From IMG/VR virus record IMGVR_UViG_3300013004_000030, positions 57,834 through 121,833 of that record: a DNA stretch of 64,000 nucleotides, one strand, 5' to 3'. The position numbers and the translations under genes were made by a program. Below, piece by piece: positions 17,196 through 42,766 of this stretch. Position 1 is the first letter of the stretch, and every line of letters starts with the position of its first letter. Source of the stretch: a virus. Lineage: Duplodnaviria; Caudoviricetes. Below the pieces are notes generated by a model. The model had not been told where the DNA came from. It ran no database searches and was given only the letters and a program-made list of their open reading frames with translations.

Positions 17196-17247
17196 TCTTT
17201 GTCTCCTTGGGTTAAAAAAATCTTACCTAACTAATCAACGCTGCTTG

Positions 17248-17643
17248 TCAGACCTTCACCTTTTTGGGCTTGGTGAAGATCAATTCCACCTTCGTCTTGA
17301 AAACCTTGACATGGAACTCCTCGTAGTTGTCACACGCCGCGAGGGTCTGATCGGTGACGGGGAAGGTTTCCGCGAAATCGTCGCCGCCGACGAGGTAATG
17401 TGCCTCCTCGTAGTAGTCCTCGTCCTTCTGGGGATCGCAGCCCTTGGCGTAGGCCACATAGGTCTTGTCGCCTTCCATGTCCTTCGGATCGCCGTTGCTC
17501 ATGATGTACACGCCGTGGTCGTGGACGAAGAAGATGGCGGGCTTGGGGGCTTCCTCGCTCCATCCCATGCCCCACTTGGTGCTGTTGAGGGCATGCTGGA
17601 CGCAACGCTTGATCTCTGAGGTCTTGAACTTGCAGACTCCCAT
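17248..17643 (-). CDS. DUF3085-family protein
   Basis: FVHDHGVYIMSN..VAYAKGCDP...GGDDFAE. Confidence 0.8.
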   Translation of the reverse strand: MGVCKFKTSEIKRCVQHALNSTKWGMGWSEEAPKPAIFFVHDHGVYIMSNGDPKDMEGDKTYVAYAKGCDPQKDEDYYEEAHYLVGGDDFAETFPVTDQTLAACDNYEEFHVKVFKTKVELIFTKPKKVKV

Positions 17644-29297: not shown

Positions 29298-30020
29298 TCA
29301 TGTTGTTTCAACTATCTGGGTCTTGTTTTTCCAAGACAGATATTCTTGAAGGTACTTGTGGTCATCGGTGTCCGCCTTGTCATTCAGAAGGAAAAAGTTC
29401 TCCACCTCGGCGGGAAGCGGGCCGTTCACGATCTCCTTCGCGTATCTAAGGGCCGAATACATGCGTCCCTCTCGGGCGAAAATCTTGAACTCGGCTTCCT
29501 TGGAAAACCTGCCATGGTCCACGGCGTAGTAGAGGGCCAGATTCTCGTCGGAACCTTTCACAAAGAATGACTCGGGCAGCCTTTTCTTGGTCAAGTATGA
29601 GCTGAGGAACTTTTCCATGTCCTTGTCTGCCTTTGTCCTTCTCCTCTTTCTTGAAATATAGTCCTTCCTCTCGATCGTGATGTCTTCCCCGTAACCCCAG
29701 TCCTTGCCGATCTCGTACACAAGTTCAACGAGGCTTTCAACCACCTTCTTGTCTACAACCGGGAGGGAATCTTCGGCCTTCTTCTCCTCGTCTTCCTCGT
29801 AGTCTTCCTCGTAGTCTCCCTCGTAGTTCACGACATGGCCGTTCACCGAGGAAAGTTCAACCTGGTCGCTGTAGTTGTTGTCGTCGTACTCGCTCGACTT
29901 TCGGAACGTGAACTCGACAAGTTCCGGACAGCCATCAAAGGCACTTGCAATAAGATCGTCTGTTGGGAAAAATCGGGTAAGGTTGTTCTTGACATAGATC
30001 AGCCGGTCAAACTTGAGCAT
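29298..30020 (-). CDS. Hypothetical protein with family-B repeats at the C-terminus
   Basis: ALRYAKEIVNGPLPAEVE. Confidence 0.7.
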   Translation of the reverse strand: MLKFDRLIYVKNNLTRFFPTDDLIASAFDGCPELVEFTFRKSSEYDDNNYSDQVELSSVNGHVVNYEGDYEEDYEEDEEKKAEDSLPVVDKKVVESLVELVYEIGKDWGYGEDITIERKDYISRKRRRTKADKDMEKFLSSYLTKKRLPESFFVKGSDENLALYYAVDHGRFSKEAEFKIFAREGRMYSALRYAKEIVNGPLPAEVENFFLLNDKADTDDHKYLQEYLSWKNKTQIVETT

Positions 30021-30522
30021 GATTCCTCCCCATTTTGGGTCTGATGTAGTTAGAAGCCATCATCCTGACGAAAATGCGTTTGCCGTTCGTCCTGCACACA
30101 ACTCCACGGTGGGGAGTCCTGCTGTCGTAGCAGACGATTGTCTGGTCGGGCACTTCCAAACCATCCAGTCCCATATTTTCAAGAAATACGTTCTGGCTCT
30201 CCCTGTCCTCGGGAACTTGATCCAGTTCCGGCATCATCCTCGGGAACTCGGTCCGGTTCGGCCCCTTTGCCCAGAGCACATATTTGTTGTCCTTGAGGAA
30301 GTCCCCGTCGAAGTGCCAGCGAACATCCCTGCAAGTCTGGATTCCTGGGTGGCAGTCCTGAACGATGAAGTCCACGAGGTAGAACTTGTATCCATCCGGA
30401 AGCATGTCCCTCATCGCATCCAGAAGTGCATTGAAGTCCGGAAACTGTTTCCGAAAGGACTTCAGATCGCAGTCCTTGACGATGATCCGCTCGTGATCGG
30501 CAGAAGTTGGAAAGTGTTTCAT
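30007..30522 (-). CDS. Putative 2OG-Fe(II) dioxygenase-like protein
   Basis: WHFDG...HRG...RIFVR (HxD..H..R). Confidence 0.55.
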   Translation of the reverse strand: MKHFPTSADHERIIVKDCDLKSFRKQFPDFNALLDAMRDMLPDGYKFYLVDFIVQDCHPGIQTCRDVRWHFDGDFLKDNKYVLWAKGPNRTEFPRMMPELDQVPEDRESQNVFLENMGLDGLEVPDQTIVCYDSRTPHRGVVCRTNGKRIFVRMMASNYIRPKMGRNHAQV

Positions 30523-30550
30523 GTTCTTTCAACTATCTGGGATCGGAGGA

Positions 30551-32014
30551 TCAAGCCGCCTCCGGCACGAAGTCCGGGTTGACGGCCAAGTCCTCGGCCA
30601 CATTGAAGAGGCTCTTCTGGCGGCTCGGATCCAGATGATCGCGGTACTTGTTGAGGAACTTGGCCTCGTCCTCGGTCAGTTCACGGTTGCTGTGTCCTCG
30701 GGCTTGGGAGACGGTCTTGCCGTCCGCACTGATCTGGACAGTCACCAGCGGCTTGTCCAGTTCGTCGGTCTTGCGGAGGAACACGATGCTGTACTGGCGA
30801 TCCACGACGCCGCTGACATAGGACGCGACGCAGTGGTTGAGGGCTGCACCCTCGTTCACGATGTCGTTGACATCCTTGGGCAGCACAACGCTGTAGGTCT
30901 TGTCGGAGAACTCAAGGATCTTGATGCTCTCGCAGATGCTGGCGAACCGCTCGGCGAAGGCTTGGCTCTGCTTGACGCGGTAGTTCCGGGCGGCGATGTC
31001 GTGGCTCATCTTCAGACCCTTGGGATAGCGGTCGTAGTTGTTGCCGCTCATCTCGCTCTGCATCCGGGCATAGTCGTCCAGCATCACGAGGCAGTCCCAG
31101 TTCTGGTGGATCATGCTGTGGCAGATGCCTTGCATCGGAAGAATGTGGAAAACATAGTCCATCACCTTCTTGGCTTTGAAGCCGCGATCAGTGATCTTCT
31201 TCAGACGGCTCCACTGGTAGGACATGCGACCAAGGGCGAACTTGTACTTCTCCCACACATACTGCCACAGTTCGCCTTCGCCTTGCTGGCAGTAGTAGTG
31301 GTAGTCGTCCAGCCAAGCACCCAACTGGGAACGGTTCTCGTCCACGCGGCCTTGCACATGATCCGTGATCACATACTCGGTGTTGGCCCGCTCACCGACA
31401 TGCTTGCAGAACCATGCGTCCATACCCCGCTCGCGGAAAGCCTTGAAGTCCAGCACCTTGTTGGATTGAAAGGCGACGCTGCAAACCGTGGCAAGCGGCA
31501 TCCGCTGGATGTACTGATTCTTGGCAAGGCTCTCAATCGCCATGCTGTTATCGCCCGTGAGCATGTCCAGCCGGTTGCTTGCGTTCACAAGACGCTTGCT
31601 GATGTTGCCGTCGCTCTCGCGGCGGTTACGCTCGGTATGGTTCTTGACCCAACGGGAAAGGAGCGTGAAGTACATCTTCACCCATCCCTCGGTGGCGATC
31701 TGGGCGATCTGCTCGTAGAAACCCTCGCGTCCGGGCTTGAACTCCTTCCAGCGGCTACCCGGATGGGCGGGCGGCGGCAGAAAAAGCGGGTCGCCCCACG
31801 AGATGTTCTTGAAGTGGCTGTCGCCCATCTCCAGTTCCGTGTTGCTGTGGAACCACTTGGCAACGGCCACATTGTAGAAGAGGCTCGTACCATTATTGAA
31901 CACGAACACGATCCGGCGGCCGTCCTCGCTCGCCGTGACGGTGGAAAGGCCAATGTACTGGGTCTTGTTCCGGGCGGCACGAGAGGCGACGGCGTTGTTG
32001 ACGACGGTTTCCAT
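30551..32014 (-). CDS. PcfJ-like domain protein
   Basis: DY..M..YP..L...HD, EG..L.HCV.SY, I.FLR...PLVT.Q..QARG..N. Confidence 0.82.
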   Translation of the reverse strand: METVVNNAVASRAARNKTQYIGLSTVTASEDGRRIVFVFNNGTSLFYNVAVAKWFHSNTELEMGDSHFKNISWGDPLFLPPPAHPGSRWKEFKPGREGFYEQIAQIATEGWVKMYFTLLSRWVKNHTERNRRESDGNISKRLVNASNRLDMLTGDNSMAIESLAKNQYIQRMPLATVCSVAFQSNKVLDFKAFRERGMDAWFCKHVGERANTEYVITDHVQGRVDENRSQLGAWLDDYHYYCQQGEGELWQYVWEKYKFALGRMSYQWSRLKKITDRGFKAKKVMDYVFHILPMQGICHSMIHQNWDCLVMLDDYARMQSEMSGNNYDRYPKGLKMSHDIAARNYRVKQSQAFAERFASICESIKILEFSDKTYSVVLPKDVNDIVNEGAALNHCVASYVSGVVDRQYSIVFLRKTDELDKPLVTVQISADGKTVSQARGHSNRELTEDEAKFLNKYRDHLDPSRQKSLFNVAEDLAVNPDFVPEAA

Positions 32015-32070
32015 GATTTGTTCCTTTAAGGTGACGGGTGATGTTGTTTCAACTATCCGGAAACAAGAAA

Positions 32071-32340
32071 TCAAAACACCACTTGAATCTCGGAATCCTC
32101 CTCCCAAGGAACCTCAGTCACAATGTAGCCCACCCGGTCAAACAGATGGTATCCGGCGACCAGCGTGTTGTGGGATGTCAGCGTCCAGACCGTCTTTCCG
32201 GGCTGGTTTCTTACGAAGTTGTGCTCCACTCCCGCGGTTCCGAACAAACATCCGTCCCAGCCGGCATCCCGGTCGTGGGGATTCTTCAAAGGCCGGAACT
32301 TTTCGTCAAAATCTTCGGGGGTCATGAAGTTGATGTCCAT
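32071..32340 (-). CDS. Hypothetical protein
   Basis: VWT..GYH..DR.GY.VTEVPW. Confidence 0.7.
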   Translation of the reverse strand: MDINFMTPEDFDEKFRPLKNPHDRDAGWDGCLFGTAGVEHNFVRNQPGKTVWTLTSHNTLVAGYHLFDRVGYIVTEVPWEEDSEIQVVF

Positions 32341-32588
32341 GATCTTGTCTCCTCAATATTTCAACTATCCGGGATCAAGGAATCAAGACCAGTCCGAGCC
32401 AACAGTTTCATTGTTCACAGAAACTTGGATTTCCCCGGACTGGGTGCGCTCTCGCACGTTCAGCACAGTGCCGTCCGTGAAGACGATGGTCAATCCCTCG
32501 TCCCAAGGATCCGAGTATGTGACCGTGGCCACTGTCTTGCCTTCAAGCTTGTCCATGATCTTGTCTCCTCAATATTTCAACTATCCGG
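32334..32588. repeat. Exact 39-bp direct repeat (32334-32372, 32550-32588) covering element, RBS and start codon
   Basis: tgtccatgatcttgtctcctcaatatttcaactatccgg twice, bracketing one small ORF (32383..32556). Confidence 0.9.
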
Positions 32589-32849
32589 CTTCAAACTTTC
32601 AGGCTCGAGGAACAAAATCTTCTCGACCATCTCGATGCTTGTCACGAAATACATGCCGGGCTCATCTTCTTGTTTAAATGCCAAAAACTTGCCAGGCATG
32701 CCGTGATCAATCATCATCATCTCGATTGTGCCGGCCTCCCGGACATCGTACTTCTCCATGAACTCGGCCAGCTGCTCGCCCTTCAAGGTCTCAAGGTTGA
32801 CCCTCAAAAACTCCTTGACCTTCAACTTGTTCGCCATGTCGATCTTCAT
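32577..32849 (-). CDS. Divergent family A-like protein
   Basis: C-terminal EMVEKILFL. Confidence 0.6.
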   Translation of the reverse strand: MKIDMANKLKVKEFLRVNLETLKGEQLAEFMEKYDVREAGTIEMMMIDHGMPGKFLAFKQEDEPGMYFVTSIEMVEKILFLEPESLKPDS

Positions 32850-33060
32850 TTGTGATCCTCGACAAGAAAAGAGGGCATCTCGGAAACTGGTCTGCCCTCA
32901 GGAATCTTGCCAATGGCAGCCTCCCTGGATTCGTACCCGCTGGTGTGGCACCACTCCCCATCCTCCTGGCGCTCGAGACGAACCCAGGACTTCAGCTCTT
33001 TTGAATAATATGCGTCCATTTTTCTCCTCCTGGTTCATAACCATCCGAAGGAGAAAAATC

Positions 33061-33256
33061 AAAAAAAGCACGGCCCGAAGACCGTGCTTATGCCGTTTGC
33101 CAGTTCTTCCCCCTCACCCAAGACGGCTACTTGGTTTTCGTCGTGGGAAGCTTCGTTTTTCTTTTCTTTGCCTGCTCGAGAACGATACTCGAGCAGCTCC
33201 GTTTGACTCACCTTCCCCCTCACACAAGACGGCTACTTGGTTTATTCAAAGGGAAG
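33061..33256 (-). ncRNA. Candidate ~195-nt sRNA with two copies of a structured motif
   Basis: TAGACA-N17-TAATAT promoter (33292-33264), motif copies at 33212-33256 and 33106-33150, terminator at 33061-33089. Confidence 0.65.
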
Positions 33257-33289
33257 CGAGAGCATATTATTAGAATTAATTAGATTTGT

Positions 33290-33709
33290 CTAGATCATTT
33301 TCCCGTTCTCGAGAACAAGCTCGGCGTAGCTCCTGGGGACAAGGATGTGCACGGACGCGTCGCCCTCGCTTACATAGATATCTTTCCCGTTCGGGCAAGA
33401 AATCAAAATCTGATCTTGTTTTTGTTGCTTTTTTGCAGACTCGAGACCAACAATTTGTTGGCAGCCCTTTTCTTTCAATAAATCCTCCCAGACAAACTCG
33501 TAACTGACGCATTTCTCCGAGAACAAGCTTCCCATCCATTCCTCGAAGATGTCGAGGTACTTGTCCTCGAATATCTTGTGCAGGAGTTCAGGCTTGCACC
33601 TATCGCACGCCTTAACGTCAGTCCCGCGCTCATCCTTATACCAGCTCGAGACCAAGCCGCTGCCGCAGCCGCACTGCCGTGTCAGCTTGTAAAATTCGCC
33701 GATGTTCAC
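33290..33709 (-). CDS. Family A member with N-terminal Zn-binding motif
   Basis: CGCGSG..CDRC; C-terminal LVPRSYAELVL. Confidence 0.65.
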   Translation of the reverse strand: MNIGEFYKLTRQCGCGSGLVSSWYKDERGTDVKACDRCKPELLHKIFEDKYLDIFEEWMGSLFSEKCVSYEFVWEDLLKEKGCQQIVGLESAKKQQKQDQILISCPNGKDIYVSEGDASVHILVPRSYAELVLENGKMI

Positions 33710-33855
33710 GATATTTCGCCGTCCTTAAGCTCGGGACCCTCATACTTGTAGTCGATTGTGTCGAATGGACACAACTCCAGGTTGCCCCCGGCCTCGATAA
33801 AAATCTTCACGAGACGGTCATAGTGCTCGCCTTTTGCCAAAGATTCCTTCATAAA

Positions 33856-33928
33856 TGACCCCATGGGGATTTGAACCCCAGTATCCACCGTGAAAGGGTG
33901 GTGTCCTAGGCCACTAGACGATGGGGCC
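33856..33928 (-). tRNA. tRNA-Glu(TTC)
   Basis: GGCCCCA/TGGGGTC acceptor; CCACC-CT TTC AC-GGTGG; no encoded CCA. Confidence 0.92.
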
Positions 33929-34243
33929 TCAAGCGTGGCTTCAGTCTTACACAAACCACAAGTCTACGGGAGCCGATAAAGAGGATACCCGCGACCCCAT
34001 CAAATCGGCAATAGCATTTTAGCAGTAATTATTCAATTATTCAAGCGTCTTCAGCTGCCGACTTCAACTTCTTGTTCTCGGCCATCAGTACCGCCACGGA
34101 ACTCTCGAGCTTGTTGATGCCCCTGATGATCCTGTGAATCTGCTCGCTCTTCTCCTGCTCGTACGTGTTGGCAGCCAACCTCTTCAGCTCGCTCAAATCA
34201 TCCTGGGAAATATACATTAGAACTCCTTGGTTGAATTAGGAGA

Positions 34244-34882
34244 GTGGGATATTTGAATTATTCAAGCATAGATAAGCTTGGAGGTTCAAATCAATTGGAT
34301 AAAGGGCTAGGCAAAAAAATACTTGAACTGTATGAGAAGGGTTTTTCCTACAGAGAGATTAAGATGAAGTTGGGTTGTTCAAAAGGAACGGTCAGCTATC
34401 ACTGCGGGTCGGGACAGAAACAAAAGTCCAAAACAAGACAGCGCAAGGGTAGGGAAGACAATGTGTTGAGAACAAAGATTGAGAGGTTTACTGGTTCTTT
34501 GAACAAAAGCCGCCAACAAGAAAACAAAAAAGACGGCCGACTGATAAAAAAGATACTTCAAATTAAGATCACGCAATTCTCCTTAACTGGCAAGAGAAAA
34601 GACAAGAATGTGAGGTGCAAACTAATGTTTAAAACCAAAGACTTATTGACCAAAATAGGATCCAATCCTGTTTGTTATCTGACAGGTAGACCCATAAATT
34701 TGGAAGATGGCAAATCCTATCATCTAGATCACATATTGCCTAAAAGTAAGGGAGGAGACAATTCGTTAGATAACTGCGGTCTTGCATGCAAGGCCGCAAA
34801 CCAAGCAAAGACTGATTTGACGCTTGAAGAGTTTGTTCAACTATGCAAAGAGGTTGTAGAAAAAAACCAACCCGCCCAGTGA
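34244..34882 (+). CDS. HNH homing endonuclease with N-terminal HTH
   Basis: GFSYREI..KLGCSKGTVSYH; CYLTG..HLDHILP.SKGG.N..DN...C..AN..K. Confidence 0.85.
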   Translation: MGYLNYSSIDKLGGSNQLDKGLGKKILELYEKGFSYREIKMKLGCSKGTVSYHCGSGQKQKSKTRQRKGREDNVLRTKIERFTGSLNKSRQQENKKDGRLIKKILQIKITQFSLTGKRKDKNVRCKLMFKTKDLLTKIGSNPVCYLTGRPINLEDGKSYHLDHILPKSKGGDNSLDNCGLACKAANQAKTDLTLEEFVQLCKEVVEKNQPAQ

Positions 34883-34903
34883 CCCGGGCGGGTTGGTAAA
34901 AAG

Positions 34904-35185
34904 TCCGAGAGGTGGGACTCGAACCCACAACCCCCAAATTATGCAATCCACTTCGGCTTTCGCCGCCAGATTTCTCTGTTCGTGGTCTGGACTATGCCTT
35001 CACCGTTGTTGTTGCCAACTTTAGGTGGGTGATTATAGTCTCTACACGTTCCCTTTCGGGCTTCGCTCGGCGTTGGGTCGTCCTTTCGGACAGGCCGTTC
35101 ACCGAATTTACACCTGACTAACCATTCGTTTCCAAATGGCCGACCCTTTAAAGTTTGACGCTCTGACCAATTGAGCTACTCTCGG
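34904..35185 (-). tRNA. tRNA(CAT), probably Ile2 or elongator Met, split by a group I intron
   Basis: Exons 35185-35152 and 34943-34904 splice to TCAAA-CT CAT AA-TTTGG; C1-G72 is paired, so not initiator. Confidence 0.88.
34944..35151 (-). mobile_element. Group I (IC3, Azoarcus-like) intron, 208 nt, after U33
   Basis: AAATTCGG..AACGCCGAGC, GTGTAGAGACTA, CACCCACCTAA, GGTGAAGGCATAGTCC core; terminal G; U.G pair in P1. Confidence 0.9.
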
Positions 35186-35202
35186 ATATTAAACCAATTA
35201 TC

Positions 35203-35379
35203 TCATCTCCACCTGTTCGCAAGCGCGAAGAATGTTGGAGCCCACAAGCCCACGAAGATTCCGAATCGTTCGCCGTGCGCCGCGTCAGTCCCCTTGCTGA
35301 GGAACCAGATGGCGATGCTGGCTGCGATGCTGATGAATCCGGCGTAGAAGCAGATGGTTCCGATTGTCTTTTCGTTCAT
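35203..35379 (-). CDS. Small two-TM membrane protein
   Basis: 58 aa, below the ORF-track cut-off; GIFVGLWAPTF motif. Confidence 0.65.
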   Translation of the reverse strand: MNEKTIGTICFYAGFISIAASIAIWFLSKGTDAAHGERFGIFVGLWAPTFFALANRWR

Positions 35380-35444
35380 TTTATTTCTTTCTAGGGGTTT
35401 GGTTGTCTTGGAGGAGTATATCTAATCCGTCCAGTAGAGTCAAA

Positions 35445-35822
35445 TCAAGAAACCATTTCTTTTCCTGCAAGGTATGCGTCGTTAATGATTTGATCTAATT
35501 CACAGAAGAGGGAATCTCCCATGTTGAACTCCCACTTCTCCCCCTTATATCCTGCCAGGAAGACGCGCTCTGCGATCTCGTAGGTCATCTCGTGGGCGTC
35601 GCCATTATGCATCATCTGGTTGACGCACCATGAGTCGGTCCCCTCGTCCTCGTCTTCCTCGCCGTTGGGTTCGGTGGAATCAAGCCAGGCCTTCTCGATC
35701 TTATTGAACTTTTTGACGGCCTTCTTCTCCCACCATTCGCTGAAGAGCTGTTCGGGAGTTGCCTTTTTCTTGGGCGCCTTCTTTTTGAGCGCCACTTTCT
35801 TTGCTGCTTTTTTCTTAGCCAT
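35445..35822 (-). CDS. Hypothetical protein
   Basis: GAGGTG RBS; Lys/Ala-rich N-terminus. Confidence 0.7.
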   Translation of the reverse strand: MAKKKAAKKVALKKKAPKKKATPEQLFSEWWEKKAVKKFNKIEKAWLDSTEPNGEEDEDEGTDSWCVNQMMHNGDAHEMTYEIAERVFLAGYKGEKWEFNMGDSLFCELDQIINDAYLAGKEMVS

Positions 35823-35837
35823 GATTCACCTCTTGAA

Positions 35838-36173
35838 CTAGACCCTCACAGACCCGCAGGTCGAACCGCATGTGCTTTGGAAAAAGTTCTCTGTCCTAGG
35901 GCTTTTAGAGGTCCGGTAGTATTTCTTGCAGCGCTCGACGAATCCGGGAAGGTTTCGAGCGATTTCCCTGGGAAGGTCGCATGGGATTAGATTCCACACG
36001 TCGGCCCTGGCGAAGGCGATCTTTAGGGCGGTCGCCTTCTTGAAACGGTCTTTTGTATTGCACATCGAGTAACCGACCTTGAAGCCGTCCTCGTGTTTGA
36101 TGGCGACGAGAACACCGAGGGGCTTTTTCTTCTTGTTCCTGATGTACTGGACTACGAACTTTTCTCTGTTCAT
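35838..36173 (-). CDS. Hypothetical phage protein (GYS.C..KD.F.K..AL.IA..RA)
   Basis: Motif resembles 54768..55031. Confidence 0.65.
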   Translation of the reverse strand: MNREKFVVQYIRNKKKKPLGVLVAIKHEDGFKVGYSMCNTKDRFKKATALKIAFARADVWNLIPCDLPREIARNLPGFVERCKKYYRTSKSPRTENFFQSTCGSTCGSVRV

Positions 36174-36811
36174 TTTACTTCCTTTTCTATTTGGCTTGCG
36201 ATCCGCCGCTTTGCATATTTTTCTAGTGAAAGCTTTTGTTTTTTCATCATCGGGATTATATCGCACCGGAGCCAGTTGCGTCTAGATCCCTTTACGACGG
36301 AATTCGTCTCGTCCTCGACGATCCACTTGGACCAACCGTTCCTTTGGACGAACTGCCTGAAATCGTCCTTTTTTGTCAAGAGGAATGGATGGATCACGGT
36401 GAAGTTGGGGAACTTGCTCTCGAGTTCAAACGGCCTTTTTGAGGGATGTCCTCTGAAGCAGTTTAGAAGGTAGCTCTCCACCCAGTCGTTGAGGTGGTGG
36501 GCGGTGATGATTGTTCCGTCCTTCGCCGACCTCGAGTAGAAATCCAACCTTGCTTGTCGGCAGTCGTTTTCCGTCTGCAGGTTTACCCCTATTTCCGTCC
36601 TGCCCTCGATATTCAGGAAATTGCACAGTTCGAGGAACTTGTCCTGCATGGTGCCGTTCTGGGCCCGGAGGTTGTGGTTGAAGTGGAGCGGGGTGAAGCT
36701 ATATCCCTTCCACTTCAGCCAGAACAGTGCGGCTATGCTGTCCAGGCCCATGCTGACGGCGAGGTGGTAGTGCTTCTCCTTGGGCAGGATTTGTTTGATG
36801 ATTTTGATCAT
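36170..36811 (-). CDS. tilS: tRNA(Ile)-lysidine synthetase-like, catalytic PP-loop domain only
   Basis: LAVSMGLDS, HFNHNLR, TAHHLND.VE..L.N, HPFL, DETN...RRN.LR..IIP. Confidence 0.8.
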   Translation of the reverse strand: MIKIIKQILPKEKHYHLAVSMGLDSIAALFWLKWKGYSFTPLHFNHNLRAQNGTMQDKFLELCNFLNIEGRTEIGVNLQTENDCRQARLDFYSRSAKDGTIITAHHLNDWVESYLLNCFRGHPSKRPFELESKFPNFTVIHPFLLTKKDDFRQFVQRNGWSKWIVEDETNSVVKGSRRNWLRCDIIPMMKKQKLSLEKYAKRRIASQIEKEVK

Positions 36812-36842
36812 GTCGTCAATCTAACCGTCCGTGCATGGATTT

Positions 36843-37166
36843 TCAACTATAGCAACTCATCATGGCTCGCATCTTGATTTCAACCGAATGGTGAAAGGCA
36901 AGGCTCCAGCTTTCTTGTCCTTCCGGCGCGACCAGTTCCGCCCTGTCTCCGTCAAAGATCACCTCGGAATCCAAATTGAAGCTCAAGTCTGCCGGCGAGT
37001 TTTTCTTCTTGATGAGGTCCAGGTGCTTTTCGTTGGCGAACCACCTCTTGTACCTGTCGTACAAAACGCCTTCCTTATAGGCGACGATCTCGGAGCAGTA
37101 GCCCATTTTCTTGATGACCTTGAGAACCTTGCCGAGCGTAACTTGAGACATGTTTTTGTCTTTCAT
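36843..37166 (-). CDS. Hypothetical protein
   Basis: Overlaps the upstream stop (ATGA/ATAA-type coupling). Confidence 0.6.
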   Translation of the reverse strand: MKDKNMSQVTLGKVLKVIKKMGYCSEIVAYKEGVLYDRYKRWFANEKHLDLIKKKNSPADLSFNLDSEVIFDGDRAELVAPEGQESWSLAFHHSVEIKMRAMMSCYS

Positions 37167-37570
37167 TTATATGATCTCGGGTTGCTTGCGAGCATGTATT
37201 GCGGGTTCTCGCAGTATTCGTAGATGCCTTGGATGTTTACCCTTGCCCAGAACCTTCCGTTGGAGTCGCTGTAGTACCTCCAAGTTCCGTCATTTCCGCG
37301 GTACTGCCAAGATATTTGCATCTGGGCGATCTCGTCGGCACGCTTCTGGGCTTGCTCTTGCTGTTTCTGCAAGGCGACTTGTTCTCGGTTTTCTTGAATC
37401 TTCTGAACTATAGGCTGAGATTCCTTTGTAATCTGGGCAAGACCGAGCAGAATGGAAACAACAGCAGCGGCGATCTGGAAGTAAATCACGATTCCCCTCC
37501 TTGCGAACCTTTTTGGCAAATCCATTTTTGCCTCCCCCTGTTCATCGGCCATTCCATTGGCCTCACTCAC
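37163..37570 (-). CDS. Membrane-anchored hypothetical protein
   Basis: TM segment, Gln-rich coil, W.Y...DG.W.YY domain. Confidence 0.65.
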   Translation of the reverse strand: MSEANGMADEQGEAKMDLPKRFARRGIVIYFQIAAAVVSILLGLAQITKESQPIVQKIQENREQVALQKQQEQAQKRADEIAQMQISWQYRGNDGTWRYYSDSNGRFWARVNIQGIYEYCENPQYMLASNPRSYK

Positions 37571-37864
37571 ATTACTTCAACTATCCGGGGATCACTTTTC
37601 AAGCCACGCGCCGTAGAGGTTTTTCATGATGTCATCGACCTGCCCCGAGATGAGTTTAATGGGGGCGCAGTCGCACATCTTCGCCAGTTCTTCTTGGCAG
37701 TCTCCCAAGAGATTACTTATCTCCTCGTAGGCGGCCCGGTTCTCTTCGCGAAGGTGCATGCTAGCCGACTGCTTGGCTATGGCCAGTTTTTGTGCGACCC
37801 TGGAGCAAGCCTCTACTTCTTCTCTGTTCATAATGTCCTCCTTGTTTAACAAGAGCTCCTCCTT

Positions 37865-38242
37865 TCAATAAGTGCACTTGGGGCAGTACATAAGTTCGCC
37901 GGTTTTATGGTATCCGTCGATGTAGCCCTTCATCATTTCTTCCTCATCCTCTTTTGAAATCTCGTCCGGCTCGGATCTTGTGTATTTAGCCACCTTAGGC
38001 AAAGGAGGCACATCTTTTCCCATCTGGGCAAGAAAATTTCTCTGGCCCTTCAAGTATCCGTATCTGTACGGACTAATTTCTTCCTCCATAAGAGGAGATT
38101 CAGTCTGGACTTGCAGATGCTCGACAGATTCAGTCTGGACTTGCAGATGCTCGACTTTCTCCTTCTTGCGGGATGAAAATACCACAAGAAAAATGAAAGA
38201 AACTAAAGATAGAGCTACCAATAAAGCAAACTTTGACTTCAT
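37865..38242 (-). CDS. Membrane-anchored protein with a 30-bp internal duplication
   Basis: VEHLQVQTES twice. Confidence 0.65.
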   Translation of the reverse strand: MKSKFALLVALSLVSFIFLVVFSSRKKEKVEHLQVQTESVEHLQVQTESPLMEEEISPYRYGYLKGQRNFLAQMGKDVPPLPKVAKYTRSEPDEISKEDEEEMMKGYIDGYHKTGELMYCPKCTY

Positions 38243-38543
38243 GACGCGCGTTCCTTCCGTGGTGGACAAATTTCAACGACGATTATAGTCGAAGACCGCT
38301 ATGGCCAGCTGTCTCCGCCCGGATTTTCAAGCTAGGCCGTGGCCCAATCGGCGATTTCTTTGACTTTTGCACGGCAGACCCAGACCAAGTGGTTCTCGCT
38401 CGCGTCGCCCATGATCGTTTCATAATGATCCCTGAGCTGACGCGACATTAGGACTCGATGTCTTGCCTCGGCGTACAGCAACGCAAGGCTGTAAGGCACC
38501 TGGGCTCCTCCGACCGACCACGATTCCCCTTGCCCGGACTGGT

Positions 38544-38885
38544 TCATGCCGCCTCCTCGTCTTCGTCATCGTCTCCCCATGTCCACTGCTGTGGCTGGGT
38601 CGTAGCTACTGGAATAGCGACTGGGGTCTGTGGAACTTGAACTGCCGGCTGTACTGGAGCCGGTGCTGGTGTCGGGCACAAGAGTCTGAGGCTGATAACC
38701 TCTGGGATCTCGTACACTACGCTTCTTCGTCCCTTTCCGCTCCTTGAGGTAACAACACGATCCACCTCGGTAACCAGTCCCTTTTCGCATAGGATCTTGA
38801 GAAAGATGGTGGCTCCTACATAGTCGGTGCCGCTTGTCTCAAGGCCTAGGTTCTTGCACAAATCTTTCGTTGTCAATCTAGCCAT
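38544..38885 (-). CDS. Winged-helix-like protein with Pro-rich/acidic tail
   Basis: Paralog of 22792..23004. Confidence 0.7.
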   Translation of the reverse strand: MARLTTKDLCKNLGLETSGTDYVGATIFLKILCEKGLVTEVDRVVTSRSGKGRRSVVYEIPEVISLRLLCPTPAPAPVQPAVQVPQTPVAIPVATTQPQQWTWGDDDEDEEAA

Positions 38886-39109
38886 TTTTCAAACCTTTCT
38901 TAGGGATCTCTCCCGATCTTAGAACTATCCGGAACCTTCTTTTCAAACATCCCCGGGCTTTTCCGGGCGATCCTTGCAGTATTCGCAATCCGCATCCTTG
39001 CACCTCTTCTCTCTCCACTCCCCGCAAACCGGGCAGTATGTCGCGTCGTACTTCTTCGAGTACTTAAGTTCGTGGGTGCATTTCCTCGGCGAATTCGTGG
39101 TGATTTCCG

Positions 39110-39436
39110 TCACCTGTCGTCCTCCTCGTCGCCCCAGTCGTCGTCTTCTTCCTCATCTTCGTATTCCCACTCGTCGTCGCCTTCGTTGATTTCCTCGAAG
39201 TTTTCGTCTTCGTCCTCAAAGATGCTATCGTCCTCGTCCTCAAAGATGCTATCGTCCTCGTCATCGTCGCCGAACAGAGAATCCCACTCGTCTTGGTGCT
39301 CGCCCGGATCTGCCGGCGACAACCGCCCTCCTTCGTAACCGCATTCCGGGCACACTCGACTTCCGGTCACATCGCTGAATTTGTATTCATCGGCGGAGTT
39401 TCTTTTGCGGCAATTAAGGCACTGGATTATCGGCAT
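39110..39436 (-). CDS. Zn-ribbon protein with long acidic tail
   Basis: CLNC..CPEC then a D/E-rich repeat. Confidence 0.7.
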   Translation of the reverse strand: MPIIQCLNCRKRNSADEYKFSDVTGSRVCPECGYEGGRLSPADPGEHQDEWDSLFGDDDEDDSIFEDEDDSIFEDEDENFEEINEGDDEWEYEDEEEDDDWGDEEDDR

Positions 39437-39933
39437 TATTCATCCTCCTCTTCGTCACTGGGCTCCATGTCCTCGTCTTTGCATATGAAGACGACCTCCA
39501 CAGCAACAGAGACGCCCTTCTCCTTGAAGACCGTGACATCATAGCAGCCGTCGCCGTAGCCGCTGCTGCTGATGAATCCTCCGGGCAGGAAGCCGCAGCG
39601 CTTCTTTGACAGAGACTGACGGCAGCAGTCGTCGTAGATGTCTTCTCCGTCATCGCCGTACGAGGACAAATCAAAGACTCCAGCCTGTCCCGAGTCGACG
39701 CCGATTGTCATTGATTCGGTCAGCATGTTCCGCCCGTACATGCTGAAGTCCACATGATGGACCAGGATCTTGCTGACCCGCTCGCCCCACGAGCCCTCGT
39801 TGCTCGTCTCCACATGGGCCGTCCAGGTGCCCTTCTTTGCAGACACCAAACGGTTCATTTCTACGGAGTAGCACGGGTCGCCGATCACGATCTGCCCGGA
39901 ACTCACCTTGAAACTTTCTACGGAGGTCTTCAT
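39436..39933 (-). CDS. DUF4241-like protein
   Basis: SG.I.IGDPCY, IGVDSGQAG.FD, SSGYGDG.Y. Confidence 0.75.
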   Translation of the reverse strand: MKTSVESFKVSSGQIVIGDPCYSVEMNRLVSAKKGTWTAHVETSNEGSWGERVSKILVHHVDFSMYGRNMLTESMTIGVDSGQAGVFDLSSYGDDGEDIYDDCCRQSLSKKRCGFLPGGFISSSGYGDGCYDVTVFKEKGVSVAVEVVFICKDEDMEPSDEEEDE

Positions 39934-40299
39934 GCATCCTCCTCCTGGGTCTTGTAGAGTTCGCAGAACTTTCCCGCAGCGTTTGGATAACATGTCATGT
40001 TGTCAAAGCAGCTGTTGAGGTAATCGACCATCTCTTGGCTCAAGGCCTCCGGGAGGTTTTCAAAATATTCCATCTTGATGTACTGCAAAAGCGCATCAAT
40101 GTAACTGAGTCTCATCTGCTCGGCGTTCATTTTCGACCTTTCTGATGATGTCCCGCAGTTCGAACACAAAATCCGTCTCTTTTCCCTCAACGGCGATGAT
40201 CTTCAGGGCTCTCTTCGCCGTTTCGAGAAGCTCTTTCTGGGCTTCCGTCATAGTTAACCCCTCCCTGGGTATAACTTGAAACTATCCGGGCTCAGGTTT

Positions 40300-40671
40300 T
40301 CAAAGATTCCTGAGAAAATTTATGAACCGTCCGAAATCACGCAGATCCTCGAACTTGTAGAAATTGTTCACTCCTCCCACGTAGTCCTTGCGACCCTTGC
40401 AAGACCGGCACAGAAACCCGTTGAAGCAGCCCTGGCCGAACTGGACGTAGATGCTCTCGCCGTGAAGGGTCACTTCACCTGACACAGCGATGCCGGCCTT
40501 GTTGACGCGGATGTCGTAGGAGCCCTTCTCCAGGCCCAGTTCCTGGGCGGTGATGGCAGCCAACTTCCTGCTCATCTTCAGGAACTGCTCCTTGGCCTCA
40601 AAGTTGTATCCAACGTTCTGAGCGCAGATCTTGATGTACTTTTCAAAGTCAAACTTGATCGTCGTGGTCAT
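40300..40671 (-). CDS. Hypothetical protein
   Basis: DIR.N.AG.AVSGEVTLH..YVQ..R.C.GR.DY.GG.N. Confidence 0.7.
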   Translation of the reverse strand: MTTTIKFDFEKYIKICAQNVGYNFEAKEQFLKMSRKLAAITAQELGLEKGSYDIRVNKAGIAVSGEVTLHGESIYVQFGQGCFNGFLCRSCKGRKDYVGGVNNFYKFEDLRDFGRFINFLRNL

Positions 40672-40715
40672 GGGTTGATCTCCTTGTTGCACTGAAACCA
40701 TCCGGCTCAACAAAT

Positions 40716-41042
40716 TCAAAGAATTTCCAGCCGGGCTGGAACGAACTCAATCTTTCCGAAGACGAGCGTGCTTTCGTCGCCGTCCAGGGGATCTACTACG
40801 ATGACATTGCCGTCCTTGACCTTGACGGGGAAATTAAGGTCAAACCAGTCGTCGGCCGGCTCTTCGTGCTCGTAGGAGGCGCTAGACGCCCACAGTTCGA
40901 GATTGTCGTTGCCGAAGTGGAACCGCTCCCAGAGCGTGTTGTCGATCTCGACGCTGTGGACGCGGAGTTCTTTGACCGCGTCCTTCAAATCCCGCAGCGT
41001 GAGGCCGCCCAGCACATGCTTTGTCTTGATAATGTCGTCCAT
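40716..41042 (-). CDS. Hypothetical protein
   Basis: 108 aa between elements. Confidence 0.65.
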   Translation of the reverse strand: MDDIIKTKHVLGGLTLRDLKDAVKELRVHSVEIDNTLWERFHFGNDNLELWASSASYEHEEPADDWFDLNFPVKVKDGNVIVVDPLDGDESTLVFGKIEFVPARLEIL

Positions 41043-41749
41043 GATGATTGCCTTATTCGGTAGGTTTCCGCCTACCTACAACCATCTAATTCAACAAAAT
41101 CAGGACTTGAACTCGACGGCGGCGTCCTTTAAATACTCGACAAGTTCCGAGGCAAGTCCGTCCAGCTCGCGCTCGTAATGCTCGAGCTTCTCTCGGACAG
41201 CCTGGATATCTTTTCTCAGCAGCACGATACGCTTGACAATATTTAGAGAGCTCATTTGTGGCCGTATTCCGTGAAGAGCTTGAGGCGGGATTCTATAAGG
41301 ATCAGGTCGTGTTCTATTGCGGCAAGGGTTCTTTCGTCAGTAGTCTCGGCCGTACTTGAGGAAAAGAACTCGAGGAGACGCTCCAAGGAATCGTGGATGC
41401 TTGCTTTCGCCCTGGACTGCTTCACGACCATCTCTTCTCCTTATTTAAAATCGCATGACATAAATATGCCGTCCAGTCTAATTTTTTCAGTCTCGTTCCA
41501 TGAAATCTTTCAAGTCTTCAGCGAACAACTTCGCGTCCTCCTCGTTCATGAACTTGATCCTGACCTCTTGCTGGTGGACGCTGATTCGACGGCACCTCAC
41601 GCGAGCCCTCATCCGGTCAACAACGCCGTCGTCACCCCAAATCCCCATGACCCAGAGAAAGCACAAGAAAATCCAGTTCATTAAAACACTCCTTGAAGAA
41701 CGCGGATCATACAGAAAAAAATAGAAAAGTCAAACCTCTAATACACTTG

Positions 41750-41840
41750 CTTCTCCTGGATCCGAAAACCAAGTAGCCGTCTTGAGTGAGTGGAGAAGAT
41801 GAGGCAAAGGCATTTGGGGCTGTAAAGCCCCATCTTATTT
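41750..41840 (+). ncRNA. Third copy of the structured RNA motif, followed by a terminator-like hairpin
   Basis: CTTCTCC..CGAAAACCAAGTAGCCGTCTTGAGTGAG..GGAGAAG then TGGGGC/GCCCCA hairpin and T-rich tail. Confidence 0.6.
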
Positions 41841-42382
41841 CACAGGCTACTCACCAGTTCCTCAACGGTCTGAGTCGGGTCAATCTGGCCGACCGCCACC
41901 ATCTGGGAGAGAAAACTCTTGAGTTGACGCTTAGTGTCCTCAATCTTTTTGATGTACCTCTTCTCCCGCCAAGACTTCTCCTGGAAAGCAGCCTTGAGGG
42001 TTATCTTGCTCATGTCATCAAGGATCACGCCGAACTTTCCGCAGTAATCAAGAAGCGTTCCCTTGTCCTTGGCCTTCTCGGAGACGATCTTCTCCGCTTC
42101 CTCGCACAAACGGCGGTTCCTTCGCACCGCCATCTCGGCCGCACTCCTCGGGCTCCTTCGGGCAACGAAGATTTCAAGTTCCTTGGGGTTGTTGAAGCCC
42201 CAATCAAGAAGTTCGTTCACCAGTTCTTGCGAGATGTTGGGATCTTTTCGGCGAACATTTTCAAAAACCCGGCCTCGGATCCAATCGTGGATCGTTCCCC
42301 CGCCGCAGTACCAGTGGGCCGCCTTGAGCACGGGATAGATCACGCCCATCGGCTTCTTCATCAAGGATTCAAGATCAGTCAT
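41840..42382 (-). CDS. Hypothetical protein
   Basis: 180 aa; AAGGAGG RBS; element upstream. Confidence 0.7.
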   Translation of the reverse strand: MTDLESLMKKPMGVIYPVLKAAHWYCGGGTIHDWIRGRVFENVRRKDPNISQELVNELLDWGFNNPKELEIFVARRSPRSAAEMAVRRNRRLCEEAEKIVSEKAKDKGTLLDYCGKFGVILDDMSKITLKAAFQEKSWREKRYIKKIEDTKRQLKSFLSQMVAVGQIDPTQTVEELVSSL

Positions 42383-42400
42383 AGTGGCCTCCTTGTTGTT

Positions 42401-42766
42401 TCAACCATCCAGGGTCGCGTTTTCAAGTTCTTCTTCAAGTCTTGCTGGCGGCTCGCCCATCCAACGCTGGGGCTTGATATGACCAAACCAATCCTGGATC
42501 GTTGGAATGAAGCCACAGTCTTCCTTCACATGCTGCTCGCCGACCCAACGCACAGGAATCATCCTGCCGGTGCTGATCTGGATTGCGTGCCCGAAAACAC
42601 GCTCAGCTTCGTATATTCCCTGAGTGTGGTGGCGGAGGGCTCGGTGCCGGAAATCGGCCCAAAGTTCTTTACTAGCATCAAACCAGTCGTGGATCGATTG
42701 GTAGTCTTCAGGGGTTCCGCCCCACTTCTTCGCAGAACTGACCGCGTGGTGGTATGAGTTCGCCAT
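42401..42766 (-). CDS. DUF6915-like protein
   Basis: HA.SSAKKWGG..EDY..IH.W.D.SK...D.RHRALRH..GI...FG..EQHV.ED. Confidence 0.75.
   Translation of the reverse strand: MANSYHHAVSSAKKWGGTPEDYQSIHDWFDASKELWADFRHRALRHHTQGIYEAERVFGHAIQISTGRMIPVRWVGEQHVKEDCGFIPTIQDWFGHIKPQRWMGEPPARLEEELENATLDG

Follow-up and report, generated by a model that had tools for sequence, protein, structure and literature searches.

A recurring module at two loci of a very large lake-water phage, tentatively read as part of trans-acting small RNAs

The module, its copies and its genomic setting

What is the stretch of about 200 nucleotides at 33256-33061 (minus strand) in which the same elaborate motif occurs twice, and does it act as an RNA? 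It lies in a window of 64,000 nucleotides, which covers bases 57834-121833 of an IMG/VR virus record; the record is 121,833 bp long and, according to CheckV, 24% complete. Positions below are those of the window unless record bases are named. PHROG matches in the record comprise baseplate wedge proteins, a 2082-aa tape-measure protein, a tRNA nucleotidyltransferase, a transposase and HNH endonucleases, and the window carries seven tRNA genes. The baseplate and tape-measure matches in combination with the tRNA genes and the 24% completeness indicate that the record represents part of the genome of a very large tailed phage. The tRNA nucleotidyltransferase (phrog_2244, E=4.7e-42) and the 405-aa transposase (phrog_506, E=1.4e-122) are both encoded outside the window, at record bases 29589-31097 (plus strand) and 33493-34710 (minus strand), respectively. 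The stretch is also present in lake-water metagenome runs; no RNA run was among those listed.

The initial annotation had described, on the minus strand, two copies of a motif (CUUCCC ... AAACCAAG UAGCCGU CUUG N GUGAG GGGGAAG) with a hairpin between them. Both copies (33256-33199 and 33150-33093) and the hairpin (33196-33172) are indeed found, and they form part of a module of about 60 nt that is present in three copies: two in tandem on the minus strand (33256-33061, hereafter locus A) and a third on the plus strand (41750-41842, locus B). The corresponding features are the following.

33264-33292, minus strand: candidate sigma70-like promoter TAGACA-17-TAATAT, 9 of 12 matches; its first hexamer overlaps the TAG stop codon of the upstream 139-aa ORF
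33199-33256, minus strand: module 1 (CM score 85.9 bits; alignment and folding)
33256-33250 with 33218-33212, minus strand: outer stem P1 of module 1
33241-33236 with 33228-33222, minus strand: inner stem P2 of module 1, with the bulge at 33224
33235-33229, 33221-33219 and 33205-33199, minus strand: loop UAGCCGU, GAG and linker CAAACGG of module 1
33172-33196, minus strand: hairpin P3 of module 1 (CTGCTCGAG/CTCGAGCAG), CUGCUCGAG / UAUCGUU / CUCGAGCAG, 9 bp, no U-run after it
33151-33170, minus strand: A-rich linker CAAAGAAAAGAAAAACGAAG between modules 1 and 2, with repeated A-R-N triplets
33093-33150, minus strand: module 2 (CM score 85.2 bits; alignment and folding)
33150-33144 with 33112-33106 and 33135-33130 with 33122-33116, minus strand: P1 and P2 of module 2
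33129-33123 and 33099-33093, minus strand: loop and linker CAAACGG of module 2
33061-33089, minus strand: intrinsic terminator of module 2, 10-bp stem (33089-33066) with 6 G-C pairs, loop UUCG, then 7 U
41750-41810, plus strand: module 3 (CM score 80.1 bits; alignment and folding)
41750-41756 (CUUCUCC) with 41792-41798 (GGAGAAG), plus strand: P1 of module 3
41768-41773 with 41781-41787, plus strand: P2 of module 3
41774-41780 and 41805-41810, plus strand: loop and linker CAAAGG of module 3
41815-41842, plus strand: intrinsic terminator of module 3, 7-bp stem (41815-41832) with 5 G-C pairs, then UCUUAUUU

Each module consists of a 7-bp outer stem (P1), whose 5' strand lies 10-13 nt away from the core, beyond an unconserved spacer, and an inner stem P2 of 6 bp (ACCAAG/CUUG-N-GU) that contains one bulge and is capped by the 7-nt loop UAGCCGU. 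Both stems are separated by an asymmetric, purine-rich internal loop in which 5'-...RAAA faces 5'-GAG. Every unit is followed by 15-16 nt with the CAAA(C)GG linker and then by a hairpin, which is a plain 9-bp stem after module 1 and an intrinsic terminator after modules 2 and 3. An A-rich stretch similar to the one between modules 1 and 2 also precedes copy 3. Alignment of the three copies bears out the earlier description of an invariant loop amid varying linkers. Nineteen consecutive bases (AAACCAAGTAGCCGTCTTG), the subsequent GTGAG, the CAAA(C)GG and most of the outer stem are invariant, while the bulged base of P2 between CUUG and GUGAG is U, G or A, and the 5' side of the internal loop is wholly different among the copies and varies by 3 nt in length.

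The 15-mer CAAGTAGCCGTCTTG, which covers the inner stem and the loop, occurs exactly three times in the window (33239-33225 and 33133-33119 on the minus strand; 41770-41784 on the plus strand). When up to three mismatches are allowed there are seven matches, against a mean of 1.27 in shuffled sequences, none of 100 of which reaches seven. The whole record of 121,833 bp contains the same three copies of the module and no other; a weak match of 20 bits at 17237-17280, obtained with a covariance model built from the three copies (R1), is a plain hairpin without P2. By blastn, likeness between the copies is limited to cores of 25-32 nt, and the regions upstream of copies 1 and 3 show no likeness when compared. 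Since 19+5+6 bases are invariant, the spacers and flanks have diverged and the cores are all that aligns, the core appears to be under constraint at the sequence level rather than to stem from a recent duplication of a whole segment.

Identical sequence in contigs of other lake-water runs shows that the module is not an assembly artefact. Three such contigs have 0 differences from the window: X6 corresponds to 32671-33160 (module 2 and its terminator), X9 to 32993-33143 (part of module 2 and the terminator) and X7 to 41427-42246 (all of copy 3). Over 32000-42500, the contigs of four lake-water DNA runs contain no variant in either locus. Contigs in three lake-water runs join 37742 to 40848 and thereby skip 3105 bases; this junction has 21 letters on its shorter side and may stem from a repeat or from another organism.

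The genes around both loci are nearly all encoded on the minus strand. Locus A lies 600 nt downstream of a phage tRNA-Glu gene, and copy 3 sits between two minus-strand genes and is antisense to them. No protein family is shared between the flanks of the two loci. The phage itself has relatives, as 350 viral contigs encode relatives of its baseplate protein at 55-90% identity. No close relatives of the neighbouring 139-aa, 180-aa and 518-aa proteins were found in viral contigs, and none of the eight neighbouring proteins checked recurs beside DUF6915 in 80 DUF6915 loci. Given that these neighbours lack close relatives and that DUF6915 is the one gene shared with the 80 neighbourhoods, the two loci seem to belong to a lineage-specific accessory region. 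Comparison of the neighbouring proteins with Pfam, PHROG, PADLOC and NCBIfam gave nothing informative beyond PcfJ-like, DUF6915 and HNH matches, and no candidate protein partner for the module emerged from these searches.

Transcription signals, coding potential and folding

The strong, orientation-matched terminators are the best evidence that the module is transcribed as RNA. Between 26001 and 46000 we counted 28 terminator-like sites, compared to 22.9 +/- 5.6 in shuffled sequences. Five of them have at least 7 pairs, at least 5 of which are G-C; the hairpins that come 15-16 nt after modules 2 and 3, on the strand of the motif, both belong to this group. The strong terminator that had been reported to bound the tandem motif, a 10-bp stem with a U-run extending to 33061, is thus among the five strongest of this region. 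The terminator of module 3, the sole strong plus-strand terminator of the same scan, is surrounded by genes of the minus strand and directly adjoins the stop codon of the convergent 180-aa gene. We consider it probable that the module is transcribed in the orientation of the motif.

Promoters are less telling. The sigma70-type sequence TAGACA-17-TAATAT proposed upstream of the tandem copies is present at 33292-33264, but sigma70-like matches occur in these 20 kb at chance density (16 versus 11.9 +/- 3.8 in shuffled sequences), so that the match by itself does not identify a promoter. A promoter scan at copy 3 found none.

Neither locus is coding. The single ORF at locus A has 54 codons with a GTG start, lacks a Shine-Dalgarno (SD) sequence and ends in the T-run of the terminator; with a spacing of 106 nt between modules 1 and 2, the copies are moreover out of frame. 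At locus B, a plus-strand ORF of 323 aa (41786-42757) runs over copy 3 and shadows a Pfam-confirmed DUF6915 gene on the minus strand; its GC3 is 0.56 versus 0.70 for the DUF6915 gene. Downstream of locus A, the terminator at 33061 ends 42 nt before the ATG of a co-oriented 57-aa gene with an SD sequence. Copy 3 is followed by no co-oriented gene, and a stand-alone RNA therefore fits locus B best.

The initial annotation took the motif for a structured RNA, and the three copies do fold alike: the same P1/P2 shape is the minimum-energy structure of all three units, and RNAalifold gives the same consensus. The folds are, however, no more stable than those of shuffled sequences (z of -0.25 to -0.61 for the single units; z of -1.60 for the 216-nt region, with 10 of 200 shuffles as good). 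Eleven of the 13 pairs are invariant over the three copies and one is compensatory, a C-G to U-A double change in P1 of copy 3, and this covariation is not significant (its score is equalled by 166 of 500 shuffles). The complementarity of P1 is kept across the unconserved spacer, including its 3-nt indel, whereas the invariant P2 stem would equally fit a site that acts at the DNA level. Read from the opposite strand, the core of each copy would give a weak hairpin of 5-6 bp with UUUUCG behind it, which is scored as terminator-like at 33118-33134 (plus strand).

The protein genes of this region display a signal of their own. An element of about 19 nt, with the approximate consensus CC(C/A)(A/G)GAT(A/G)GTTGAAA(C/T)AA(C/T)A, recurs in about 35 copies on the minus strand between approximately 13,300 and 42,800 of the window (among them 42791, 42405, 32581, 32365, 32053, 30533, 29312, 28618, 28146, 27064, 26500, 25711, 24101, 21234, 20504, 20091, 19550, 19291, 15897, 15264, 15032 and 13686). 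Every copy lies on the strand of the genes and precedes an SD sequence and start codon by 10-35 nt, and the heptamer GTTGAAA occurs in the record 57 times on the minus strand versus 16 times on the plus strand. This element looks like a phage-specific promoter or 5'-UTR signal. Among the few genes here without it is a 64-aa gene (ORF 41487-41681, start at 41681), which has a good sigma70-like promoter of its own (TTGACT-16-TATGAT, 10 of 12 matches; 41733-41706, minus strand) back to back with locus B. At 32586-32335 (minus strand), the adjacent 57-aa and 89-aa genes share an identical upstream sequence and start, CCGGATAGTTGAAATATTGAGGAGACAAGATCATGGAC, of which a partial third copy is located around 32062.

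Known families and related sequences

The module belongs to no described RNA family and was found in a single phage lineage only. The initial annotation recognised no Rfam family, and the Rfam scan agrees with it both at gathering scores and at E<=10. Across the whole window, Rfam 15 gives six tRNA matches at gathering scores and nothing else. Lowering the threshold to E<=10 for both loci (32900-33400 and 41650-41900) yielded nothing meaningful, as the best match, ncS025, reaches 19.3 bits against a gathering score of 46 and aligns to the terminator alone. The literature was searched as well, both for UAGCCGU and for tandem structured RNAs of phages and metagenomes, and judging by titles and the openings of abstracts, none of the papers listed describes the motif.

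Pattern searches in which the invariant bases were fixed and the stems or the loop left free gave a similar picture, their matches being attributable to chance or to coding sequence. The exact 15-mer occurs at 56 loci in viral contigs, none of which has the flanking motif. AAAC-N3-6-TAGCCGT-N4-7-GTGAG is found at 103 viral loci, of which three have a pairing stem (3 bp) and none has P1 or other features, and AAACCAAG-N7-CTTG-N-GTGAG at seven, four of them near-identical, again without P1 or flanking features. In JGI metagenome contigs, the fixed-spacing pattern with NGG has 0 loci. Without NGG it has at least 119, and none of the matches listed shows P1; 13 of those listed have four pairing stem bases, most of these sharing one near-identical flank. 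Against GenBank phages, blastn returned only E=10 matches to the A-rich linker, and megablast of 6 kb found no match. The covariance model R1, built from three sequences, gave nothing below E=6.7 in five DUF6915-bearing records and nothing below E=6.4 in 80 DUF6915 neighbourhoods (546 kb). Of the 80 records found by the baseplate protein, 50 were searched with it and gave no match at E<=1; all are fragments of 2-64% completeness.

Three known types of element were compared with the module directly. The kink-turn consensus has a 3-nt bulge followed by tandem G.A / A.G pairs next to a Watson-Crick stem. In the module, the 3' strand does have G-A next to P1, but the opposing strand has A-A in register instead of G-A, and inspection of the alignment shows an unpaired 5' stretch that is long (6-9 nt); a canonical kink-turn was rejected on these grounds. 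In ToxI-like antitoxin RNAs of type III systems, nearly identical direct repeats follow one another without a gap, immediately ahead of a gene for an endoribonuclease toxin. Here the units are 106 nt apart, are alike over 32 nt only and are not contiguous repeats, and none of ten neighbouring proteins matches PADLOC, with no toxin or defence model among them, so this candidate was likewise dropped. In the case of an RNA anti-CRISPR or solitary CRISPR repeat, the core would match the repeat of a host CRISPR array. A search of 185,579 species genomes with a pattern that also required NGG after GTGAG gave five single loci, none of them array-like and none with P2 pairing.

Readings of the two loci

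We propose, with a probability of roughly 0.4, that the two loci encode trans-acting phage small RNAs presenting, once or twice per RNA, a sequence-specific module that probably binds a protein. RNA-A would be a transcript of about 200 nt with two modules (33256-33061, minus strand) and RNA-B one of about 90 nt with a single module (41750-41842, plus strand). Both would be transcribed from their own promoters, presumably of the host type, and each would end at the terminator hairpin that follows module 2 or module 3, respectively. The invariant core of 25-28 nt could serve as a recognition site for both sequence and shape, most likely of a protein, as the stem, the loop and the internal-loop bases are fixed while the bulged base, spacers and flanks have diverged. 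In this way the RNAs might function in trans as sponges, decoys or scaffolds with multiple sites; the initial annotation had likewise suggested a decoy RNA, for a protein or a ligand. The two loci share the module and no flanking protein family, which points to an RNA that acts on its own. In addition, both lack the recurring upstream element of the approximately 35 protein genes, which fits separate transcription units. Alternatively, RNA-A could be the 3' UTR of the upstream transcription unit comprising tRNA-Glu and the 139-aa ORF.

The tandem locus also invites a reading in cis, in which the module is a riboswitch-like or factor-dependent attenuator or antiterminator. Its loop would have two alternative partners, the linker and the 5' arm of the terminator that follows; a bound ligand or protein would choose between them and would thereby set read-through into the block that begins with the 57-aa gene (locus A) or antisense transcription of the convergent genes (locus B). 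Locus A indeed has the classic layout of a leader, its terminator being placed 42 nt before a co-oriented gene start, and the conserved linker precedes each hairpin at a fixed distance of 15-16 nt. The loop contains a 5-nt run (four Watson-Crick pairs and one G-U) complementary to the 5' arms of both terminators, which differ from each other in sequence, as well as complementary runs of 3-5 nt to each linker; such a 5-nt run is found in 4.7% of random 10-mers of the record and in 0 of 52 other arms of perfect 8-bp hairpins. This complementarity was, however, spotted post hoc, and 5 bp would have to compete with terminator stems of 7-10 bp. The linker changes in copies 1 and 3 weaken the pairing with the loop and are not accompanied by a compensating change, and at locus B there is no co-oriented gene that could be controlled. 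Moreover, a degenerate version of the recurring element (GGATGGTTATGAACC) is located downstream of the terminator and ahead of the 57-aa gene, so that this gene may have its own start signal; as most genes of the block carry their own upstream element, read-through may not be needed at all. For a metabolite riboswitch a wider family would be expected, and none was found. On balance we regard control of the terminators in cis as rather unlikely. A variant that combines both ideas, a terminator switch of a new class under the control of a factor, appears somewhat less probable still: a phage or host factor bound to the core would decide between loop-linker and loop-terminator-arm pairing, gating the small-gene block at one locus and antisense transcription into the convergent genes at the other, and the short terminated RNAs of such a switch may also act in trans. 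Similarly unlikely is a base-pairing antisense RNA with the loop and core as seed, in which RNA-B would be cis-antisense to any transcript that reads through from the 180-aa gene into the gene after it, and RNA-A, with two copies of the same 28 nt, would reach that target in trans. RNA-B is flanked by two minus-strand genes and lies on the strand opposite to them, and the core of RNA-A forms a perfect duplex of 27-28 nt with the minus-strand copy of locus B (-51.7 kcal/mol). The RNAs also combine an intrinsic terminator having a U tail with an A-rich, A-R-N-like linker, as is typical of Hfq-type small RNAs. Yet the best other duplex in the 121.8-kb record (-31.7 kcal/mol) falls within the range of the best duplexes of ten shuffled cores (-30.7 to -33.9), and a seed leaves the invariant stem, the internal loop and the maintained P1 unexplained. 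Furthermore, a sigma70-like promoter downstream of locus B belongs to the next gene itself, and mRNA complementary to RNA-B may therefore be rare.

Improbable as well is the option that there is no RNA gene at all and that the module is a DNA-level site (for a phage DNA-binding protein, promoter-like or for recombination), a weak terminator of the opposite strand or a functionless dispersed repeat. The stem and loop of the core are equally invariant, as would be the case for a DNA recognition sequence, the core is found in both orientations relative to the genes, its opposite strand is terminator-like (33118-33134, plus strand), and neither folding energy nor covariation is significant. Against this stand the strong unidirectional terminators that follow the motif in its orientation at both loci, and the separated P1 strand that stays complementary through a double change and a 3-nt spacer indel. 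A spacer of varying length is awkward for a dimeric DNA site, and three copies in 121.8 kb are few. Mimicry of the h44/h45 junction of 16S rRNA, put forward in the initial annotation, would have the module titrate a factor recognising the 3' minor domain of the small-subunit (SSU) rRNA. Its support is the likeness of AACCAAGTAGCCGT to a 16S segment noted in that annotation (a presumed 12 of 14 with an indel), and that segment forms one strand of a helix, not a 7-nt hairpin loop. No SSU rRNA model of Rfam matches 32900-33400 or 41650-41900 at E<=10, and RF00177, which is present in 14 of 14 control genomes, is absent from the record at E<=0.001. We thus consider this mimicry highly implausible.

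If the loci indeed encode trans-acting small RNAs, their organization is reminiscent of the CsrB/RsmZ-type RNAs that sequester proteins. Such RNAs likewise stand alone, end at a terminator, repeat a sequence-specific module and are encoded by more than one gene per genome. Unlike them, the phage RNAs lack GGA-in-loop motifs and carry one or two modules each, and the module is a two-stem element with an internal loop instead of a simple hairpin; no homology was found. Locus A also resembles fluoride and ZTP riboswitches and the put RNAs of phage HK022 in its order of candidate promoter, putatively structured RNA, terminator and gene. In those systems a loop or pseudoknot overlaps the 5' arm of the terminator, similar to the loop of the phage module, which is complementary to both 5' arms, and the tandem arrangement is reminiscent of tandem aptamers or of the two put stem-loops. 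The differences are that there is no match to a riboswitch of Rfam, that locus B has no downstream sense gene, that the phage element lacks a wide phylogenetic distribution and that the pairing amounts to 5 bp.

Few small RNAs of very large environmental phages have been described, and many intergenic elements of these phages are unexplained. If expressed, the RNAs would constitute a regulatory or counter-defence RNA specific to one lineage, with a modular recognition element as its building block, and pairing between the loop and the terminator arm would offer a simple switch. As the element is known from a single phage lineage and no relatives were found, its general importance is limited.

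With respect to its location, RNA-A is comparable to the species 1 and 2 RNAs of phage T4, which are encoded beside a tRNA cluster: it lies near tRNA-Glu in a region with seven tRNA genes. It has no tRNA-like features itself, neither ARAGORN nor the tRNA model of Rfam giving a match. As in the case of small RNAs derived from 3' UTRs, it could arise by processing of the 3' end of the upstream unit or be initiated within that end. The same region contains a tRNA-like gene (35186-34903, minus strand) that seems to be split by an insertion of about 200 nt and is called neither by ARAGORN nor by Rfam at gathering scores. The group I intron model of Rfam matches 35167-34964 (E=9.5e-5; 26.4 bits, below the gathering score of 50). 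The strongest terminator of the area (34897-34866, 14 bp) comes after the split gene, which also adjoins an HTH-HNH endonuclease gene (34244-34882, plus strand), and the lake-water contigs display raised depth and variants at 35186-34903.
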